From: Gammaproteobacteria bacterium
GTDB taxonomy: Bacteria > Pseudomonadota > Gammaproteobacteria > GCA-001735895
Assembly: GCA_003231795.1 (NCBI GenBank)
Contig: QIJI01000471.1
Span: 1-32,691 of the forward strand
DNA: 32,691 nucleotides
Direction of reading: 5' to 3'
Below, one piece after another: positions 1,058-27,738 of this stretch; position 1 is the first letter of the stretch, and each line of letters opens with the position of its first letter. Under the pieces are notes generated by a model. It did not search any database. It had not been told where the DNA came from and worked only from the letters and a program-made list of their open reading frames with translations. The position numbers were made by a program, and so were the translations under genes.

Positions 1058-4000
1058 GTGCGTAAACTGGGACTAATTGTTGCTTTATGGTTGGCGGTAT
1101 TGCTGCCGACGAACAGTCATGCATTAGGTCTGGGCGAGATTGAGGTCAAATCATTCCTTAATCAGCCGCTACATGCAGAGATCGAAGTAATTTCGGCACG
1201 CGCTGGCGAAATAGATGATTTACTGGTAAGCCTGGCATCGCGTGATGCTTTTAACCGGGCAGGTCTGTCACGGCCACGCCATCTATCCGATCTCAGGTTT
1301 ACAGTTAAAAAGAGTGAAGATGGTGAGCAGGCGATTGTTATCGTCACAACCAAAGCTGGCGTTAAAGAACCTTTCCTGAACTTTCTTGTTGAAGCCGACT
1401 GGTCAAAGGGGCGGGTGCTTCGAGAATTTACCATATTGCTCGATCCTCCTTTCTATGCTGAGCAATCTGCTCCGGCAGAGCCGGCCGCTAGTCCGGCGGT
1501 AGAACCGGCTGTTTCTGATGATTCCAGTGTCAGCGAAATCGTAGAGCAAACCGGGGTAACGACAACCACGGCTGAAAGCGACGAGCAGATCACCGAACCC
1601 ATAGCTTTAACCGAAGATACGGTCGAGACGGAGCCATCCGTAGAGCCATCCTCTTCGGAATTTATCGCAAGCGAATCGGCAAACATTATCGAAGGTGATG
1701 TTTTAGTCGTTAAGGGCGATACGCTTTGGAGCATAGCATCACGTTATAAGGACGATGCTCACAGCATGGCGCAGGTAATGCTGGCATTTCAGCGCGTCAA
1801 CCCTGATGCATTTAACAGCGGTAATATCAACAACTTAAAGGAAGGTGCGATTCTTCGCGCCCCGAGCGCAGACGAAATCGATCTGTGGGATAACCAGGAG
1901 GCTTACGCCGAAGTACTGGTGCAAAATGGTTTGTGGGACGATTACGTTGAACGCGTAACGGGTGTTTCGCAGTCCATTGCTGCCGAGGGTAGCGAAGGCG
2001 AGGTTTCAACCGATCAGAGTAGTGGCGAATTAAGTCTTTTACTGCCAGGTGACGGTGATACTGAATCAACCGGTATTAGTGAAGATGCCGGTGTTGGCGA
2101 ATTGCGTACCCGACTCGCGCTGGCAGAGGAAGAGCTCGAAGCGTCCAAAATCGAAAACTCCGAACTCGAATCCCGAATCGCCGAACTTCAGGCACGTTTG
2201 TCTAAAGTTGAAGAATTGCAAAGAATGGTTGAGATCGAAGACGACAGTCTCGCCCAATTGCAGGCAGATCAAGCTGAGCAGGCCGAGGCCGTAGAAGAAA
2301 CTGCACCACCGGAAACGGTTACCGAAGCGATAGAAGCGGATGAAGAGGCGCTGCTAGAAGAACTACTGGCGGAAGAAGCCGCTGCTCAGGCTGAAGAACA
2401 GGCGGTTGTTGATGGAACCGCCGAGATGGTTTCAGATGATACGCTCGTAGATGATGACGTGATGACCGATAATATGGTCAGTGACGATACGATGTCGGAA
2501 GCAGATGCGGCTGATGCTGACGCGGCTGATGCTGACGCAACGCCACTCCCTGCACCGATCATAGTCACTGAATCTGTTGCCCGGGCGCCATCCATTTTCG
2601 ATGGCATATTGCCCCCGAATATAATTGCGATGATCCCGTCAATGCCTTCGATGGGAGGTTTGCTCGGTGATCCAATTATTCTGGCAGCTGTTGGCGGCGT
2701 TATTGTACTGCTACTGATTCTGGTCATAGTAAAACGCCGCAAAGCCGCTTCCGAGGATGATTCTGACAGCGCTGAAGATAGTATTTTCGCCGACGAAGGA
2801 GATGAGGAACTGACGCCGATTCACATGGCCGAAGGCCAATCCGATGAAACGGATATCAAGATTCCCTCCGATAAAGAGTTAAGCGTTGAACCTGCAAAAC
2901 CCGAAATCGTTGCCGAGGATGATGAAGAAGACGAGTTCTCAAGCACTGCCATCATTTCGCAGCAGGATATGCCTGAGCCGGAAGCTCCGGCACCAGCGGC
3001 AGCTAGTGCAGAACAAGACGATGTATTAAACGAAGTCGATGTTTACCTGGCCTATGGTTTATATGACAACGCCGAAGAGTTGCTGACCAGCAATCTTGAG
3101 ACGAACCCGGAACGCGCTGATTACCGCTCAAAGTTATTGGATACTTATTTTGCCACCAAGAACGTGAATGCATTTGTCCAGGAAGCAGATAAATTGAAGT
3201 CCATGGGTGATTCTGGCGGCGATTACTGGGATCGTGTACAGGTTATGGGCTACGAACTGGCCCCTGAGAATGCGCTGTTCTCTGATGCCAAGGATAGTGG
3301 CATGAGTGCCGCGGACCTCGAGATAACCAAGCCGCAGGAAGCGGATTTTGATCTCGGTGCATCAGATGAAGATGATACCAATTTCTCAACCACCGATTTT
3401 AATCTGGGCGAGGATGATACGGGCGGTGATTTTAGCGATACGGCATCCATTGGCGAGGCCGGAGATGTCTCGGCAACGCAACAGATTCAACGCCTGGATG
3501 ACGATGAATTACCTTCGCTGGACGATGATGAGACCAATATCCGGGAACCGGTAACTGATGAACCGGTTCTGGAATTGCCCGATGATATCGGCGAAGAGCT
3601 CGAATTTTCAATGGACGATGCGGCGGAAAAACCCGCCGGCGATGATGCTATGGAATTGCCAGGCGATCTTGATCTGGGTTCGGACGACGAAGAGGAAATT
3701 ACCGCAGAACCTCCGGTTGCGGGGGAATCAGATGAAATGGCGATGGATTTTGATATCGGAGACGACGCAGCGGAAGACGACTCCGAATTGGACCTGGGCG
3801 CTGAGTTCGAGGCTGCTCTGGAAGAGGCCGACGATCTTGATGTTGATGAAGCTGATCTTATCCCGTTTGAAAAAAGCCTGGATGATGAGCCCGATGATGC
3901 TGCTGTAGAAATTGACGTGGCGGCTGACGATGCCCTCATTTTTGAAGAAACCGCGATTGTCGACACCACCCCGGGTTATGAAGAACCGGCCGAAAATCCG

Positions 4001-4510
4001 AAAATAGGGTCAGCAAAATCTGGTGATTCAGAAATTGATCTGGGTATGGAAGATACTGCGTTAATGGACGACGACAAGGTTGATGATGATGACCTGCTCA
4101 TTAACATGGGTGACGGTACTGATGACGAAGAAGATATTTCAATAATTGATTTCGGTGGTGACGATTTCGACGAGCCCACTGCCGCGGTTGCATCTGTTTC
4201 AGACGATGATTCGGTTGCGATGGATATCGATATGGACGATGGCCGCGATACCCAAACCGGTACTTTTGCGCCCGGCGATTTTGACGAGCCGACGGCGGCG
4301 GTTGACTCGATTGCGGATATCGATGATATCGGCGACCTGATGTTACCGGATGATGTGGACGAAGTTTCTACCAAACTTGATCTTGCACGAGCCTTTATCG
4401 ATATGGGTGACACCGAAGGCGCTCGTGGAAGTCTGGAAGAAGTGGTGACGGAAGGTAACGATGAGCAAAAGGAGGAAGCGCAATCACTGCTCGATAGCAT
4501 CAAGAAATAA
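1058..4510 (+). CDS. fimV: FimV-family peptidoglycan-binding, highly acidic membrane protein
   Basis: GTG start with a gggag Shine-Dalgarno (SD) sequence upstream. Features are a signal peptide (MRKLGLIVALWLAVLLPTNSHA), a LysM-like segment (GDTLWSIASRY...LKEGAILRAP), a coiled-coil (ELESRIAELQARLSKVEELQ), one TM helix (ILAAVGGVIVLLLILVIV followed by KRRK), a very D/E-rich C-terminal half and the C-terminal FimV motif (KLDLARAFIDMGDTEGARGSLEEV). Position upstream of truA is conserved. Confidence 0.85.
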   Translation: MRKLGLIVALWLAVLLPTNSHALGLGEIEVKSFLNQPLHAEIEVISARAGEIDDLLVSLASRDAFNRAGLSRPRHLSDLRFTVKKSEDGEQAIVIVTTKAGVKEPFLNFLVEADWSKGRVLREFTILLDPPFYAEQSAPAEPAASPAVEPAVSDDSSVSEIVEQTGVTTTTAESDEQITEPIALTEDTVETEPSVEPSSSEFIASESANIIEGDVLVVKGDTLWSIASRYKDDAHSMAQVMLAFQRVNPDAFNSGNINNLKEGAILRAPSADEIDLWDNQEAYAEVLVQNGLWDDYVERVTGVSQSIAAEGSEGEVSTDQSSGELSLLLPGDGDTESTGISEDAGVGELRTRLALAEEELEASKIENSELESRIAELQARLSKVEELQRMVEIEDDSLAQLQADQAEQAEAVEETAPPETVTEAIEADEEALLEELLAEEAAAQAEEQAVVDGTAEMVSDDTLVDDDVMTDNMVSDDTMSEADAADADAADADATPLPAPIIVTESVARAPSIFDGILPPNIIAMIPSMPSMGGLLGDPIILAAVGGVIVLLLILVIVKRRKAASEDDSDSAEDSIFADEGDEELTPIHMAEGQSDETDIKIPSDKELSVEPAKPEIVAEDDEEDEFSSTAIISQQDMPEPEAPAPAAASAEQDDVLNEVDVYLAYGLYDNAEELLTSNLETNPERADYRSKLLDTYFATKNVNAFVQEADKLKSMGDSGGDYWDRVQVMGYELAPENALFSDAKDSGMSAADLEITKPQEADFDLGASDEDDTNFSTTDFNLGEDDTGGDFSDTASIGEAGDVSATQQIQRLDDDELPSLDDDETNIREPVTDEPVLELPDDIGEELEFSMDDAAEKPAGDDAMELPGDLDLGSDDEEEITAEPPVAGESDEMAMDFDIGDDAAEDDSELDLGAEFEAALEEADDLDVDEADLIPFEKSLDDEPDDAAVEIDVAADDALIFEETAIVDTTPGYEEPAENPKIGSAKSGDSEIDLGMEDTALMDDDKVDDDDLLINMGDGTDDEEDISIIDFGGDDFDEPTAAVASVSDDDSVAMDIDMDDGRDTQTGTFAPGDFDEPTAAVDSIADIDDIGDLMLPDDVDEVSTKLDLARAFIDMGDTEGARGSLEEVVTEGNDEQKEEAQSLLDSIKK
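2507..2536 (+). repeat. perfect 15-bp tandem duplication (gcggctgatgctgac x2) inside fimV, in frame (AADAD x2)
   Basis: Read directly: 2507-2521 is identical to 2522-2536. Confidence 0.9.
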
Positions 4511-5672: not shown

Positions 5673-6317
5673 ATGACGCATAGAACCCGAGTCAAAATTT
5701 GTGGAATTACCCGCTTGCAGGACGCGCTATACGCGGCCGAACGCGGTGCCGATTCTATCGGCCTGAATTTCCATCGTTCGAGCCCGCGTTTTATCGACAT
5801 CGAACAGGCGCAAGCTATTCGCAAGCAGATCCCTCCATTTGTTAATGTCACTGCCTTACTATTGGACGAAGACGACGATTGGACCGCACAGGTGGTACAT
5901 CAGGTCAGACCCGATAGCTTACAGTTTCATGGCAGTGAATCGGTAGATAGCTGCGAAGCCTGGCAGTTGCCTTATTTTAAGGTTATTCCGATGGCCAGCG
6001 TTGACGATCCCGTTGACTATGCCAAATCTTACAGCTCTGCCCAGGGATTCCTGTTTGACAGCAACGCTGCTGGACGACAGGGCGGTTCCGGTGATACATT
6101 TGACTGGTCCAGAATTCCCTCCGGATTTAATTTCCCAATGGTCTTGGCTGGTGGAATTAATGCATCGAATGTTGCCGGGGCGATTGTTCAGTTGGAGCCC
6201 TGGGGAGTTGATGTCAGTAGTGGTGTCGAGGTTTCTAAAGGAGTCAAAAGCGCCGATTTGATCGATCATTTTATGCTTGAGGTCAATCGTGGCGATGAAA
6301 GTAAATCTGGTTGTTAA
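5673..6317 (+). CDS. trpF: phosphoribosylanthranilate isomerase TrpF
   Basis: MTHRTRVKICGITRLQDALYAAERGADSIGLNF is a typical TrpF N-terminus. The ATG at 5673 lies 1 nt after the truA stop (5669-5671). The longer ORF starting at 5526 overlaps truA and is rejected. Confidence 0.9.
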   Translation: MTHRTRVKICGITRLQDALYAAERGADSIGLNFHRSSPRFIDIEQAQAIRKQIPPFVNVTALLLDEDDDWTAQVVHQVRPDSLQFHGSESVDSCEAWQLPYFKVIPMASVDDPVDYAKSYSSAQGFLFDSNAAGRQGGSGDTFDWSRIPSGFNFPMVLAGGINASNVAGAIVQLEPWGVDVSSGVEVSKGVKSADLIDHFMLEVNRGDESKSGC

Positions 6318-6422: not shown

Positions 6423-7286
6423 ATGAACTGGTTTGAATCGCTGTTGCCGTCGAAAATCAGAACGTCAGGGGGTAACGACAAGAAGAACGTACCCGAGGGG
6501 CTGTGGGCGAAATGTGGTTCCTGTGATGCGATCATCTATCGAGCCGAGCTGGAGCGTAATCAGGAAGTCTGTACCAAGTGCGATCATCATATGCGGATTT
6601 CGGCACGCCGCCGGCTGGGATCGTTTTTTGATGAAGATAGCACCCATGAAATTGCCGCCAATATCGAGTCCGTCGATGTGCTCAAATTCAAGGACGACAA
6701 AAGATATCGAGATCGGTTGAGCCAGGCGCAAAAACGTACCGGTGAAAAAGATGCGCTGATCGTAATGCGCGGCAAGGTACTTGGTGTTGAAATGGTAGCG
6801 GTTGCATTTGAATTTCAGTTTATGGGAGGTTCGATGGGCTCTGTCGTCGGCGAAAAATTTGTTCGAGCGGTAAATACGGCTATTGAACACGGTATACCGA
6901 TGATCTGTTTTAGCGCAAGCGGTGGTGCCAGAATGCAGGAAGCTCTCTATTCGCTATTGCAAATGGCTAAAACCAGTGCTGCGTTAACCCGGCTGTCACG
7001 TCGTGGCCTGCCTTATATCTGTGTCTTAACTGATCCGACCATGGGCGGTGTCTCGGCCAGTTTGGCTATGCTGGGCGATGTTCAGATTGCAGAGCCCGGC
7101 GCGTTAATCGGATTTGCCGGACCCCGGGTTATCGAACAAACCGTTCGGGAAACTCTACCCGAAGGATTTCAGCGGAGTGAATTTCTGCTGGATCACGGTG
7201 CGCTGGACATGATTGTAGATCGTCGACAGTTACGTCAGAAAATCAGTTCCCTGTGCACTATGCTGATGGGGCAGGCCGCACCCTAG
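6423..7286 (+). CDS. accD: acetyl-CoA carboxylase carboxyltransferase beta subunit AccD
   Basis: N-terminal Cys4 zinc ribbon (CGSCDAIIY...CTKCDHHMR) and a carboxyltransferase core ([18 protein letters not shown]). A ggag SD sequence precedes the ATG. The stop TAG (7284-7286) is formed at the left end of the repeat element. Confidence 0.95.
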
Positions 7287-7551
7287 TGGTCGAACAACTA
7301 AGGTTTGATGGATACAGAGTGCCCCAGGTGATCTGGAACAAGGCGCAGCCCGCAGGGAATGGCATGTCCTTTTCAAGGGTTGCAACGCAGTGCCAGATCA
7401 CCTGGGGCGCTCCCTTCGGGCGAGGCGGGAAGCGGTCATTCGCTTTGTTGCGCCTTTCGACAAGGGCTGGGCCATTGCCTTCAAGGCGCGTCGCGCGACT
7501 GACCGCTTCGCGTCTCGCTGTATCCATCAAACCTTAGTTGTTCGACCACTA
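7284..7551 (+). mobile_element. MITE-like, TIR-bounded structured element, copy 1 (268 nt). The strand given is the one on which the G.U pairs are allowed.
   Basis: Perfect 34-bp terminal inverted repeat: tagtggtcgaacaactaaggtttgatggatacag (7284-7317) against 7518-7551. Internal stems are 7318-7336/7393-7411 and 7421-7443/7495-7517. A second copy lies at 24744-25034 in the opposite orientation. Confidence 0.8.
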
Positions 7552-7619
7552 GAGCTCTTTCAACACTGAAAACACCCCCTTTTAGCACCCTGGAGCAATG
7601 GCTCGAATGGCAAACGTCG

Positions 7620-17962: not shown

Positions 17963-18039
17963 CGGGGTGTAGCGCAGCCTGGTAGCGCAACTGCTTTGGG
18001 AGCAGTGGGTCGGGAGTTCGAATCTCTCCACCCCGACCA
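17963..18039 (+). tRNA. tRNA-Pro (anticodon TGG)
   Basis: Cloverleaf read by hand: acceptor cggggtg/caccccg, anticodon stem actgc/gcagt with loop tttggga, T-arm gggag-ttcgaat-ctctc, encoded CCA. Confidence 0.9.
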
Positions 18040-18115
18040 TATTCATTCCAGTGAATGCTCCAAAATTCACTAGAATCAGGAAAGGTAAGTAAATTTTCTG
18101 GCAGTTTAAGGTGAT

Positions 18116-18199
18116 CCGAGGACCGCGGCGTATATAAAATACGTGAGGATTCGACGGCCCGGTCCACCGGCACGCGACCAACGCCACAATCGCGTAAAA
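18116..18199 (+). repeat. unit A of the tRNA-spacer duplication (shorter paralog of the core of unit B)
   Basis: Shares ccgagga, accgc.g.gtata...tgaggattcga and ccaacgcc.caatcg..taaaa with 18233-18355. By hand alignment the identity is about 75-80%. Confidence 0.55.
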
Positions 18200-18201
18200 G
18201 A

Positions 18202-18229
18202 TTGACGATTAGAAACCGGTAGTTAAGAT
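18202..18229 (+). promoter_or_regulatory. candidate internal sigma-70 promoter ahead of the tRNA-Arg/His/Leu genes
   Basis: ttgacg (18202-18207), a 16-nt spacer, then taagat (18224-18229). A degenerate paralog of the -10 region (tttaaggtg) precedes unit A. Confidence 0.4.
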
Positions 18230-18236
18230 GAACCGA

Positions 18237-18376
18237 GGATGCCTTTCTAAGCGCCTATTTTAGGCGAGTGCAAGGCGGCAGCACGCGCAGAACCGCAGTG
18301 TATACAGATATACATGAGGATTCGAGCATGCTGCCAACGCCGCAATCGTCTAAAATAGGCACTTAGAAAGGTATCC
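18237..18376 (+). ncRNA. rod-like, roughly 140-nt structured leader (unit B) abutting tRNA-Arg, function unknown
   Basis: 31-position outer stem 18237-18267/18346-18376 (28 Watson-Crick pairs, 2 G.U, 1 C.A). It continues with tgc/gca, ggcg/cgcc and gcagca/tgctgc, and is capped by hairpin tgtata-caga-tataca (18299-18314). It ends 3 nt before tRNA-Arg. Confidence 0.5.
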
Positions 18377-18379
18377 GAA

Positions 18380-18456
18380 GCGCCCGTAGCTCAATTGGAT
18401 AGAGCATCGGCCTTCTAAGCCGAGGGTAGCAGGTTCGAATCCTGCCGGGCGTGCCA
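18380..18456 (+). tRNA. tRNA-Arg (anticodon TCT)
   Basis: Acceptor gcgcccg/cgggcgt, anticodon loop cttctaa, T-arm gcagg-ttcgaat-cctgc, encoded CCA. Confidence 0.9.
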
Positions 18457-18462
18457 AATTAT

Positions 18463-18539
18463 GGTGGGCGTAGCTCAGTTGGTAGAGTGCAAGATTGTGA
18501 TTCTTGTTGTCGTGGGTTCGATCCCCATCGTCCACCCCA
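18463..18539 (+). tRNA. tRNA-His (anticodon GTG)
   Basis: The extra 5' G(-1) pairs with C73 (ggtgggcg/cgtccacc), which is diagnostic of tRNA-His. Anticodon loop ttgtgat, T-arm gtggg-ttcgatc-cccat, encoded CCA. Confidence 0.9.
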
Positions 18540-18626
18540 TTTTCCGGGCGCCTGTAAACAGGCGCTGTAAATGGCGTTTTTAAATGACAGGTGAACTCGA
18601 TTCGATTTATTTGAAAGTTGTTATCT

Positions 18627-18710
18627 GCGAGAGTGGCGGAATTGGTAGACGCGCCAGATTTAGGTTCTGGTATCTTTGATGTGAGAGTTCGAGTCTCTCC
18701 TTTCGCACCA
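18627..18710 (+). tRNA. tRNA-Leu (anticodon TAG), class II with a long variable arm
   Basis: Acceptor gcgagag/ctttcgc (one G.U), anticodon stem ccaga/tctgg with loop tttaggt, a long variable arm, T-arm gagag-ttcgagt-ctctc, encoded CCA. Confidence 0.9.
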
Positions 18711-24708: not shown

Positions 24709-24743
24709 AGCAGTTAAGATCAACGATTGGATTCTCTGCAGTA

Positions 24744-25034
24744 TAGTGGTCGAACAACCAAGGTTTGATGGATACAGCGCGACGTGAAGCGGTTAGTCGC
24801 GCGACGCGCCTTGCAGGCAATGGCCCGGTCCTTGTCAAAAGGCGCACCAAAAGTAGGCGCCCTGAGGCGACAAAGCGAATGACCGCTTCACGCCTCGCCC
24901 GTAGGGAGCGTCCCAGGTGACCTGGCACTGCGTTACAACCCTTGAAAAGGGCATGCCATTTCCTGCGGGCTGCGCCTTGTTCCAGGTCTCCTGGGACGCT
25001 CTGTATCCATCAAACCTTGGTTGTTCGACCACTA
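24744..25034 (-). mobile_element. MITE-like, TIR-bounded structured element, copy 2 (291 nt), inverted relative to copy 1
   Basis: Perfect 34-bp TIR (24744-24777 against 25001-25034). The reverse complement aligns end to end with 7284-7551, apart from a 23-nt insertion (about 24847-24869) and scattered substitutions. Confidence 0.8.
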
Positions 25035-25274
25035 GAATGTACCAAGTTTTAATCCAACAGCCGCTGGATCAGAAAATTATGAGACTTTTTTTGACCTTTT
25101 GTCCTTTTTAGGTTGACCCTAAAGCGTGCTGTTGGTTTAATTCGACGCTCTGGACGGGGGAATTCGCGGGCGATAATTGCTCAAGCGCAACAATAACAAG
25201 CAAGATCAGACTTGTGTTGCCTGTCCGTCCTTCGGGCTATAAATATATAAACTTAACCAAATGGAAAAAATCAA

Positions 25275-25567: not shown

Positions 25568-25643
25568 GGGTGCTTAGCTCAGCTGGGAGAGCATCGCCCT
25601 TACAAGGCGAGGGTCGGCGGTTCGATCCCGTCAGCACCCACCA
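25568..25643 (+). tRNA. tRNA-Val (anticodon TAC)
   Basis: Acceptor gggtgct/agcaccc, anticodon loop cttacaa, T-arm ggcgg-ttcgatc-ccgtc, encoded CCA. Confidence 0.9.
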
Positions 25644-25648
25644 TATCA

Positions 25649-25725
25649 GGAGTGGTAGTTCAGTTGGTTAGAATACCGGCCTGTCACGCCGGTGGTCGCG
25701 GGTTCGAGTCCCGTCCACTCCGCCA
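25649..25725 (+). tRNA. tRNA-Asp (anticodon GTC)
   Basis: Acceptor ggagtgg/ccactcc, anticodon stem ccggc/gccgg with loop ctgtcac, T-arm gcggg-ttcgagt-cccgt, encoded CCA. Confidence 0.9.
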
Positions 25726-25791: not shown

Positions 25792-27681
25792 ATGCTGCTA
25801 GCAATTCGTGAAAAAGTATCGGGATGGCTTGCCTATGGCATCATCTTTCTAATCAGTATCCCATTCGCGCTGTTCGGTGTGAATTCGTATTTCGGTGGTG
25901 GTGCAGTTTCCCCGGCGGCAACCGTCAACGGTGAAGAAATAAGTCTGCGTGATTTCGATCGGGAATATGCAAATTACCGCCAGCGGCTTGCACGTCTGTT
26001 TGGTGGAACTATACCGGATTCTTTTGACAATGAGACAGCACTACGCCAGCAGGTTTTGAGTCAATTGGTTGAGAATATCGTGCTTCAACAATATACCGAG
26101 GAACGTTATTATCGAATCAGCGATGAGGCGCTCAGCCGAATCATTCGCGAAATGCAGGAATTCCACAGCAATGGGCAGTTTGATACTGATACCTACCAGG
26201 CACAATTGCGTTCGATTGGTGCCTCACCTTTAGGATTTGAGCAAAGACTCAGACAAAGCCAGGCAATGAGTCAATTTCAGAACGGAATACAGGCAACTGC
26301 ATTTGCAGTCCCCGTGCAGGAGAAGTGGTTTGCCAGTTTGAACAGTCAATCTCGCAAAATCCGTTCGCTTAATTACAGTGTTGGCCCAGGCGGGATAATG
26401 GTTGATGCGCAAGACATAGAACAACGCTACCAGTTAACGCCGGATAGGTTTCGTACCTCTGAGAAAATTAAAATTGAATATATTGAGATTAATCTGGCCA
26501 GCATTACAGAGAGAATCAGCGTCGATCGGGAAAATAGCTATGCGCGCTATCAGGAAAGTCTCGAGGCCTATTCCAGTCCGGAGGTGCGTGACGCCAGCCA
26601 TATACTGATTCAGGTTTCGGGCGAGGAGAATGAACAGGCACTAGCGCAAATAACCCGGATTCGTGAGCGTCTTGATAATGGTGAAAGTTTTGCCGACCTG
26701 GCACGGGAACATTCGCAGGATACAGGCTCTGCCGGGGATGGCGGTAGTCTTGGTGAAGTTGAGCGCGGCATCATGGCACAGGCTTTTGAGACATCTTTAT
26801 TTTCACTGCAGCCAGGGCAGATAAGTGAGCCGGTGAAGACAAATTTTGGCTGGCATTTAATTCAATTGCATAGTGTTAGCGGGGGTGAAGCCCAATCCTT
26901 CGAGTCTGTCAGAGCAGAGATAGAAGACGAAATTAGAGCCGGACTCGCCGAAGGGCAGATTTTTGAAATAGTGGAGACTCTGGCGAACCTGGTTTACGAA
27001 CAATCAGATTCACTGTTGGCGGCAGCCGAACAGCTCGATCTGGAAATTGAAACCAGCGACTGGTTTGAACGTTCTTCCGGAGAGGGTATCGCCGCTCAAC
27101 AAAAAGTTAGACAGGCTGCATACTCTGCCGAGGTGTACCAGTTGGGTCTCAATAGTGAGGCCATAGAACTCGGTGACGAATCCGTTGTCTTTATCCGTCT
27201 CAAGCAAGTTAAAAAATCCGAGTTGCAACCGCTAGAGCAGGTCAGCGATCAAATTCGAAACGAATTGATTCGGAGTAAAACACAGGAACAGAATCTGGCT
27301 GCAGGCACGAGTGCACTTTTGGCATTAAAACAGGGTAAGAGTCTGGAGCAACTTGCGAACGACTGGTCATCCTCTATTGTTGACCACGGGTTTGTTGCGC
27401 GTGATCAGGCTGAAGTAGATAACCTGATAAAAAGAACTGCGTTCAGAATGCCTAAACCGGATCAGGGGATGGAATACGAAGGGCTACCTCAGCCTGATGG
27501 TAGCTACAGTATTGTCGAATTGTCGGCTGTTATCAGTAATGATTTTGGTGCCGACGATGACTTGCTGGAAGGCATGAGCAGTGCCAATGCGGAAGCAGAT
27601 TACCAATCCGTCTTGAAACTGCTAAGTAGCCGTGCCGAGGTAATACAAACTCCGCTTGAAGACCTCGATTTTCTTAACTAG
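25792..27681 (+). CDS. ppiD: periplasmic chaperone / peptidyl-prolyl isomerase PpiD
   Basis: N-terminal membrane anchor (WLAYGIIFLISIPFALFGV), a SurA-like N-domain and a parvulin domain (ASHILI...FADLAREHSQDTGSAGDGGSLGEV...GWHLIQL). Position after hupB is conserved. Confidence 0.9.
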   Translation: MLLAIREKVSGWLAYGIIFLISIPFALFGVNSYFGGGAVSPAATVNGEEISLRDFDREYANYRQRLARLFGGTIPDSFDNETALRQQVLSQLVENIVLQQYTEERYYRISDEALSRIIREMQEFHSNGQFDTDTYQAQLRSIGASPLGFEQRLRQSQAMSQFQNGIQATAFAVPVQEKWFASLNSQSRKIRSLNYSVGPGGIMVDAQDIEQRYQLTPDRFRTSEKIKIEYIEINLASITERISVDRENSYARYQESLEAYSSPEVRDASHILIQVSGEENEQALAQITRIRERLDNGESFADLAREHSQDTGSAGDGGSLGEVERGIMAQAFETSLFSLQPGQISEPVKTNFGWHLIQLHSVSGGEAQSFESVRAEIEDEIRAGLAEGQIFEIVETLANLVYEQSDSLLAAAEQLDLEIETSDWFERSSGEGIAAQQKVRQAAYSAEVYQLGLNSEAIELGDESVVFIRLKQVKKSELQPLEQVSDQIRNELIRSKTQEQNLAAGTSALLALKQGKSLEQLANDWSSSIVDHGFVARDQAEVDNLIKRTAFRMPKPDQGMEYEGLPQPDGSYSIVELSAVISNDFGADDDLLEGMSSANAEADYQSVLKLLSSRAEVIQTPLEDLDFLN

Positions 27682-27738
27682 TTGTTCGACCCCTGGCTTA
27701 AGCAAACTCAAGTTCGATAACTATTTTCCGGCGGCCGG

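Follow-up and report, generated by a model that had tools for sequence, protein, structure and literature searches.

We found that the feature between lon and hupB in contig QIJI01000471.1 of a gammaproteobacterial assembly (GCA_003231795.1) is, with high probability, a copy of a bacterial MITE, a non-autonomous DNA transposon about 270 nt long. The window, that is, the whole stretch of DNA that was analyzed, spans 32,691 nucleotides and carries two copies of the element, copy 1 between accD and folC and copy 2 between lon and hupB. TIRs of 35 nt (CTAGTGGTCGAACAACYAAGGTTTGATGGATACAG, starting CTAGTGGTCGAACAACYAAGG...), perfect in both window copies, enclose two internal hairpins (P2 and P3) and a short linker. 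The TIR arms are 100% complementary over 35 nt in copy 1 and 93% complementary over 43 nt in copy 2. The element is most likely selfish DNA mobilized in trans by a transposase that we infer to be IS630-like or IS5-like. The features of the window are the following.

24743 to 25035, minus strand: element copy 2, 293 nt including the flanking A/CTAG bases, inverted relative to copy 1
24744 to 24777, unstranded: copy 2 TIR, low-coordinate arm, sequence TAGTGGTCGAACAACCAAGGTTTGATGGATACAG
25001 to 25034, unstranded: copy 2 TIR, high-coordinate arm
24777 to 24898, minus strand: copy 2 internal hairpin P3, stem arms 24777-24800 and 24875-24898
24847 to 24869, minus strand: 23-nt module absent from copy 1, minus-strand sequence CGCCTCAGGGCGCCTACTTTTGG
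24899 to 24905, minus strand: copy 2 linker between P3 and P2, CUACG-type (UUCG in copy 1)
24906 to 25001, minus strand: copy 2 internal hairpin P2, stem arms 24906-24928 and 24979-25001, apex conserved across subfamilies
7283 to 7552, plus strand: element copy 1, 270 nt, between accD and folC; TIRs 7283-7317 and 7518-7552, P2 7317-7412, P3 7420-7518
7284 to 7286, plus strand: accD stop codon TAG, within the terminal CTAG of copy 1
27678 to 27696, plus strand: probable degenerate remnant of a third copy, CTAG+TTGTTCGACCcCTgG, 16 of 18 bases identical to the outer right TIR

Copy 2 is located 35 nt past the lon stop codon, upstream of the hupB promoter region. The TAG of the CTAG at 27678 is the stop codon of ppiD and is directly followed by TTGTTCGACCCCTGG; judging from this resemblance, the site probably holds a decayed third insertion or an excision remnant. 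A comparable remnant, CTAG+TTGTTCGACCAC, occurs near position 496 of the stretch L028. The tips of the two hairpins are inverted copies of a single unit that have diverged from each other; a local alignment of the P2 apex with the P3 apex in reverse complement scores 39, compared with 15.3±3.0 in shuffles.

An earlier sequence-only reading had described the lon-hupB feature as an inverted copy of the accD-folC feature that differs from it mainly by changes preserving base pairs, and had considered an RNA as a possible functional form. The reverse complement of 24743-25035 can indeed be aligned with 7283-7552 over its whole length; the two differ by 21 substitutions and one 23-nt indel (92% identity without the indel). 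The individual changes that it listed are present in our alignment: the TIR pair T7299:A7536 becomes C:G, the P2 pairs C7322:G7407 and T7332:A7397 become T:A and C:G, the P2 wobble U7320.G7409 becomes C:G, the P3 mismatch G7428/G7510 becomes T:A, the linker changes from CTTCGG to CTACGG, and three changes fall in the P2 apex. The disruptive changes that it reported, an A/A mismatch in P2 and new mismatches in P3 of copy 2, are likewise there. In the larger family alignment the G/G of copy 1 is the derived state, the consensus being T:A. The description of the differences as mainly pair-preserving is overstated. On the MFE structure of copy 1, 10 of the 21 substitutions keep or create a pair (six make up three compensatory pairs, two convert G/G into T:A, and two are pair-keeping changes of the wobble type), eight break a copy-1 pair, and three fall at other unpaired positions. 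The underlying observation is nonetheless real, because only about 0.1 compensatory pair is expected by chance from 21 substitutions (an estimate over 270 positions) and three, arguably four, are found.

The 23-nt insert in copy 2 had been read as a local duplication inside P3. This does not hold, as L039 and L023 contain the same module in inverted form in the opposite arm (P2), in both cases inserted at GCA^AC. Two ORFs across copy 1 (7253-7537 and 7258-7530; 94 and 90 aa) were considered as coding sequences and rejected, since both are disrupted in copy 2 and the indels between copies are frame-breaking.

The element belongs to a repeat family that we collected by pattern scans with 20 nt of the TIR, using one pattern per collection. 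The scan of GTDB genomes returned ten stretches, in two MAGs, with one chance match, and that of metagenomes returned 37 stretches, about 27 of them genuine. No match was obtained from viral contigs by the same type of scan or from plasmids by blastn. Altogether the family occupies about 30 distinct loci with different flanks, in the two MAGs and in many metagenome contigs. We identified 13 full copies of 174–306 nt, in addition to copies cut by contig ends, half-elements, solo TIRs, and mini-derivatives of 33 nt. Every full copy has conserved TIRs. The repeat breaks metagenome assemblies, several copies being located at contig ends.

Indels between copies, those of 23, 36, 15 and 21 nt included, are mostly not multiples of three, so any reading frame is broken, and the element is without coding capacity. 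The 36-nt module is found in P2 of L002, L005 and L009 and, inverted, in P3 of L035. That both this module and the 23-nt module recur inverted in opposite arms follows from the homology of the P2 apex with the reverse complement of the P3 apex.

The 33-nt mini-derivative, CT(A/T)GTGGTCGAACAACCAAGGTTTGACCACTA(G/A), is found at two unrelated loci, L003 2836-2868 and L013 ~5914-5946, the latter being the same locus as L033. It is made up of the left 25 nt and the right 8 nt of the element joined at a GA microhomology, and represents either a recurrent deletion or a 33-nt version that is still mobile.

One of the two MAGs that carry the family (contigs L001-L004 and L007, CAXMQY01...) is labelled 'uncultured Haliangium sp.', and the other (contigs L005, L006, L009 and L010, JAAEPH01...) is the gammaproteobacterial MAG Cli_6. 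Haliangium is a myxobacterial genus. Unless the Haliangium-labelled MAG carries a wrong label or was wrongly binned, the element has crossed phyla. A tmRNA-like sequence beside a solo end in L004 was rejected after ARAGORN and Rfam gave no confirmation. A literature search for the TIR sequence found it nowhere in the searchable literature, and an exact protein look-up of the HupB of the window gave no record. The family is previously undescribed, and its hosts are uncultured marine Gammaproteobacteria.

Comparison of the insertion sites with those of related strains, a check that the sequence-only reading had proposed, found both window sites empty in close relatives. The identities that this reading had given to the flanking genes, accD, folC, lon and hupB, were confirmed. 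In the contigs L048 and L050, where Lon identity is 97% and 95%, the lon-hupB site holds no element; the spacer there is 279 nt long compared with 566 nt in the window, and the gap falls exactly between the element ends. The accD-folC site is without copy 1 in L053 and L054, contigs with 94% and 88% AccD identity. The element is thus polymorphic for presence and absence at orthologous sites, and both window copies are recent insertions, absent from close relatives.

The accD site is also informative about the target. The empty site in L053 reads GCACCCTAG|CGC, so copy 1 entered a CTAG made by the last Pro codon and the TAG stop codon of accD. The length of AccD stays at 287 aa because the terminal TAG of the element now serves as the stop. 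In L054 accD ends in TAA and there is no insertion. A third relative, L052 (93% AccD identity), carries a different MITE of 176 nt (3861-4038) at the same stop-codon CTAG that copy 1 occupies. Its TIR is CTAGTGCTCTTTCAACATGATAA, its end is related to that of the main family (CTAGTGCTC..., CTAGTGCTCTTTCAAC...), and its internal module CCCAAAGCACTCGCT is common to some main-family copies. These sequence similarities point to a superfamily with CTAGTG ends and exchangeable interiors. In the window, the flank right after copy 1 (7553-7566, AGCTCTTTCAACA) resembles the TIR of the L052 MITE (TGCTCTTTCAACA); it also aligns with the ordinary flank of the relatives if a 7-nt deletion is allowed. The resemblance may be coincidence or the trace of an earlier occupant.

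Across the family, 38 of 42 element ends are flanked by or start with CTAG, and the base outside is variable. CTAG is the most depleted palindromic tetramer of the window (28 occurrences compared with 126.5 expected, a ratio of 0.22), and three of the 28 sites lie at element ends. TCGA is two-fold enriched in the window. At nine loci, accD included, an ORF of at least 100 codons uses the terminal TAG as its stop codon. At three further loci an ORF runs into the TIR: those of L037/L015 and L020/L036 stop at the TIR TGA (positions 24-26), and that of L007 stops at a TGA 62 nt in, at a solo TIR. The element therefore inserts at CTAG, or at the TA within it, often at gene stop codons.

A transposase encoded elsewhere would bind the identical ends, excise or copy the element, and insert it at the rare CTAG. 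Since CTAG is depleted and genes cannot contain an in-frame TAG, the insertions that survive would accumulate at gene ends and particularly TAG stop codons, where the terminal TAG of the element itself would restore the stop. Insertion may duplicate the central TA, as with IS630, or the whole CTAG, as with some IS5-family elements. Titles cited in PMC2170065 indicate that IS630 inserts at TA within CTAG, and the IS5-type MITEPsy1, linked to ISPsy2, duplicates CTAG or YTAA (PMC3189936). Mobilization by an IS5-family enzyme that duplicates the 4-bp CTAG, and not by an IS630-family enzyme that duplicates TA, is a tentative alternative that we think somewhat improbable. CTAG is present at both ends of most copies, MITEPsy1 provides a precedent, and flank positions 1, 2 and 3 vary at similar rates, position 1 behaving like the TA. 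However, window copy 2 (ATAG...CTAG) and L016 (TTAG...CTAG) have equal TA flanks and unequal 4-bp flanks, which favors TA duplication, although positions 2 and 3 vary about as often. The first 14 bases of the element also resemble the TA-ended Correia repeat (PMC5039591; PMC2229807). For the accD site, duplication of TA and duplication of CTAG explain the data equally well.

At the lon-hupB locus the empty sites (L048 5355-5372) read GCAGTA-CCGA-GAATG, whereas simple duplication of TA or CTAG predicts GCAGTA-TA-GAATG. The 4-nt difference lies exactly at the junction (window 24738-24746 and 25031-25040). The CCGA could be an ancestral polymorphism, the result of a deletion on insertion, or a footprint. 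The more distant relative L051 is without that part of the spacer and so is silent on the ancestral target.

A search for an autonomous element with matching TIRs, made with one TIR pattern in each collection, found none in the scanned genomes, metagenomes, viral contigs and plasmids, and the fetched stretches contain no paired TIRs 0.7-3 kb apart that would suggest a parent IS. There are no transposase-like ORFs beside the element ends; the ORFs by ten solo ends are ordinary host genes, among them those for a permease, SDR, GST and RtcB. Many accepted MITEs have no known autonomous partner. The element has the general features of a bacterial MITE, being small (below about 500 bp) and non-coding, with TIRs, dispersed copies, and presence/absence polymorphism.

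Pairing potential is conserved throughout the family. We aligned 12 copies and scored them on the structure of copy 1, which has 109 pairs; 93.5% of the cells are paired. Of the 109 pairs, 23 are changed on both sides, compared with 9.5±2.2 in shuffles (none of 500 reaches the observed value) and 0-8 in slid controls. Covarying pairs occur in all three helices. RNAalifold, run independently, found the two internal hairpins again, with 18 pairs of this kind. When the divergent L023/L005 subfamily is left out, seven pairs are changed compared with 4.9±1.1 in shuffles, 23 of 500 of which reach the observed value, and with 0-1 in slid controls, so that the signal within the main subfamily is moderate. 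Transversion swaps are still part of it, with T:A replaced by A:T in the TIR, G:C by T:A in P2, and A:T by T:A in L027. The proposal that pairing is kept by compensatory change, made from two copies, thus becomes stronger with twelve. In the divergent subfamily the stems have changed, yet the P2 apex and the junction still keep their sequence.

Such a pattern could mean that the element is, or carries, a functional structured RNA, with selection on the RNA for a Y-shaped fold of the TIR stem and two hairpins. Its role could be that of a module for mRNA processing or stabilization at the 3' ends of genes, or of a small RNA, with copy 1 sense to accD/folC and copy 2 antisense to lon/hupB. The strong covariation across the family, transversion swaps such as A:U to U:A included, fits this explanation, as does the conservation of the P2 apex and junction while the stems vary. 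The RNA folds are very stable (z = -16.9 for copy 1 and -12.8 for copy 2, against shuffled sequence). Copy 1 would be co-transcribed if folC is expressed from upstream, as the gene order suggests, and Correia/NEMIS and ERIC repeats are known to affect mRNA fate (PMC2229807).

However, we found no strand signal in the family. Column pairs of G·U and A·C type number 21 and 16 (p=0.51, a count in which symmetric internal loops are included), which speaks against one defined RNA strand as the functional form. The sequence-only reading had found G·U pairs tolerated on one strand only, but copy 2, read in the orientation proposed as sense, holds four A·C mismatches. From one full copy to another the MFE difference between strands takes values between -12 and +11 kcal/mol, and its sign varies. 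A consistent sense or antisense placement is contradicted by copies in both orientations relative to flanking genes: those that supply stop codons number about five in sense and two in antisense, and many others lie between convergent genes. The UNCG tetraloop class of the linker, which had been thought conserved, is not kept either, as the loop is UUCG, UACG or UCCG but also GUCG or UAUG. At the Rfam 15 gathering score only tRNAs of the window reach threshold, and at permissive thresholds the two copies yield only sub-threshold, meaningless matches to miRNA hairpins. Simple scans for promoters and terminators found none at copy 1 and chance-level matches only at copy 2. Many copies are truncated or solo ends, and both window copies are recent and missing from close relatives. 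We therefore regard selection on an RNA as improbable, and a function as RNA is unproven.

The sequence-only reading had itself cautioned that the covariation could arise at the level of DNA. This caveat fits the data at least as well, with a precedent in REPINs (PMC3116915). It is the combination of no strand signal with the compensatory changes known from mobile DNA hairpins that leaves the RNA interpretation unsupported. The same reading had used the TIRs as one paired stem but left the element unnamed where we see a mobile MITE. Hairpin potential may be retained in the lineage of copies that are still transposing, or may be restored by hairpin-templated repair; either would produce paired changes with no need for a functional RNA.

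A further DNA-level explanation is movement of the element in the form of a folded DNA single strand, as in REPIN/REP-RAYT, IS200/IS605 or attC-like systems, with hairpins that covary because an HUH-type enzyme recognizes them. The single-stranded DNA fold is as significant as that of the RNA (z = -14), compensatory changes occur in all three helices as they do in REPIN hairpins (PMC3116915), and the element is a nested mosaic of palindromic modules. Yet identical 35-bp ends with symmetric CTAG flanks are typical of DDE cut-and-paste elements, and the element is 3-8 times longer than REP/REPIN units. No RAYT- or IS200-like gene is among the ORFs next to element ends in the roughly 388 kb of flanking sequence that was fetched, and the strand bias that might be expected of a strand-specific single-stranded substrate is absent. 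We consider this mode of movement very unlikely.

The conserved P2 apex is not predicted by a purely selfish model, unless the apex is a protein-binding site. It is conceivable, though unlikely, that the three-way fold itself is selected, as a folded transposition intermediate or recognition structure or as a host RNA module at gene ends. Such a reading would take together the TIR stem, the two hairpins built from inverted units, the conserved apex and the covarying stems. One such RNA module could be an entry site for RNase III by which accD is uncoupled from folC. If the three-way fold is selected, the family would represent a structure-dependent class of MITE in which short modules move between two arms.

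For the non-autonomous MITE that we favor, transcription would be a by-product of position. Copies inside operons, such as that between accD and folC, must be transcribed passively, and from the gene order this applies to copy 1 if folC is expressed from upstream. The long perfect duplex of at least 35 bp could then be processed by RNase III, by analogy with NEMIS, as a side effect.

Known bacterial MITEs have TA ends and form long stem-loops (PMC2229807). The systems closest to the element described here are the TA-ended Correia/NEMIS, RUP and ERIC repeats and, for the two-armed fold, CIR (PMC2229807). Correia/NEMIS repeats are likewise non-coding MITEs with long TIRs and TA-containing termini that occur at gene ends and inside operons in variants differing in length by internal modules. 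Their transcripts form a long duplex that is cleaved by RNase III in Neisseria (PMC2229807). The Correia repeat is 26 bp long, with the sequence TATAGTGGATTAA(C/A).... Compared by eye, the outer TIR of our element matches it in 11 of 14 bases (TAGTGGATTAACAA compared with TAGTGGTCGAACAA; Correia sequence from PMC5039591). However, Correia elements are 100-155 bp long with TIRs of 24-26 bp and a single stem, whereas the element here is 270-306 nt long with 35-bp TIRs and two extra hairpins. The host clades differ, the ends are CTAG here and TATA there, and we detected no IHF site in the element. With only the first 14 bases similar, the resemblance is a lead and not a sign of membership.

RUP of Streptococcus pneumoniae is a small TIR element found at TA that is thought to be mobilized in trans by an IS630-family enzyme (PMC2229807). 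Its TIRs match those of a known IS (IS630-Spn1), whereas no matching IS was found for our element, and it is 107 bp long with no reported internal hairpins or covariation. ERIC/IRU repeats of enterobacteria are imperfect palindromes with TA termini that are co-transcribed at gene ends, and their orientation matters for mRNA stability in Yersinia (PMC2229807). They differ in being 127 bp long with perfect TIRs of 7 bp and in having no sequence similarity to the element. CIR of Caulobacter and Brucella is predicted to form two long hairpin arms with a linker and is conserved across species (PMC2229807), but it is without TIRs and carries GANTC methylation motifs, whereas the element here has a third, terminal stem formed by the TIRs.

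REPINs are also mobile palindromic DNA in which compensatory changes on both sides of the hairpin are common (PMC3116915). They are much shorter, go with a flanking RAYT gene present in single copy, and use an HUH single-stranded DNA mechanism, none of which is seen here; with its length of about 270 nt, 35-bp TIRs, and no RAYT-like ORF beside any copy, the element falls outside the REP/REPIN-RAYT systems. MITEPsy1 of Pseudomonas syringae inserts at CTAG or YTAA and duplicates the site (PMC3189936), but is 100 nt long with imperfect 18-nt TIRs that resemble ISPsy2 and has no sequence similarity to the element.

Covariation between two copies of a palindromic repeat is no evidence for an RNA. 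Because mobile DNA with long inverted repeats yields the same signal, a search for TIRs, empty sites, and strand symmetry should precede any assignment of such hits to ncRNAs. With this family, a well-defined MITE becomes known from a group of marine and sediment Gammaproteobacteria that is abundant but uncultured. Its targeting of a depleted CTAG is very clean, with the terminal TAG reused as a gene stop, and two different MITEs with related ends have struck the same accD stop codon in sister lineages. Correia repeats are not known to have a cognate transposase. If the transposase of the family described here is found, the similar outer end might lead to what mobilizes Correia repeats in Neisseria.

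Elsewhere in the window there are six tRNA genes in two clusters (17963-18707 and 25568-25722), four of them upstream of tig-clpP-clpX-lon and two between hupB and ppiD, which is an ordinary context. An unrelated near-perfect palindrome of 140 nt (18237-18376), with 35-nt arms and an RNA MFE of -83 kcal/mol, is located immediately upstream of the tRNA gene at 18380. The relative L051 has it at 5782-5916 with 86% identity, which suggests that this palindrome is probably inherited vertically and is not mobile.
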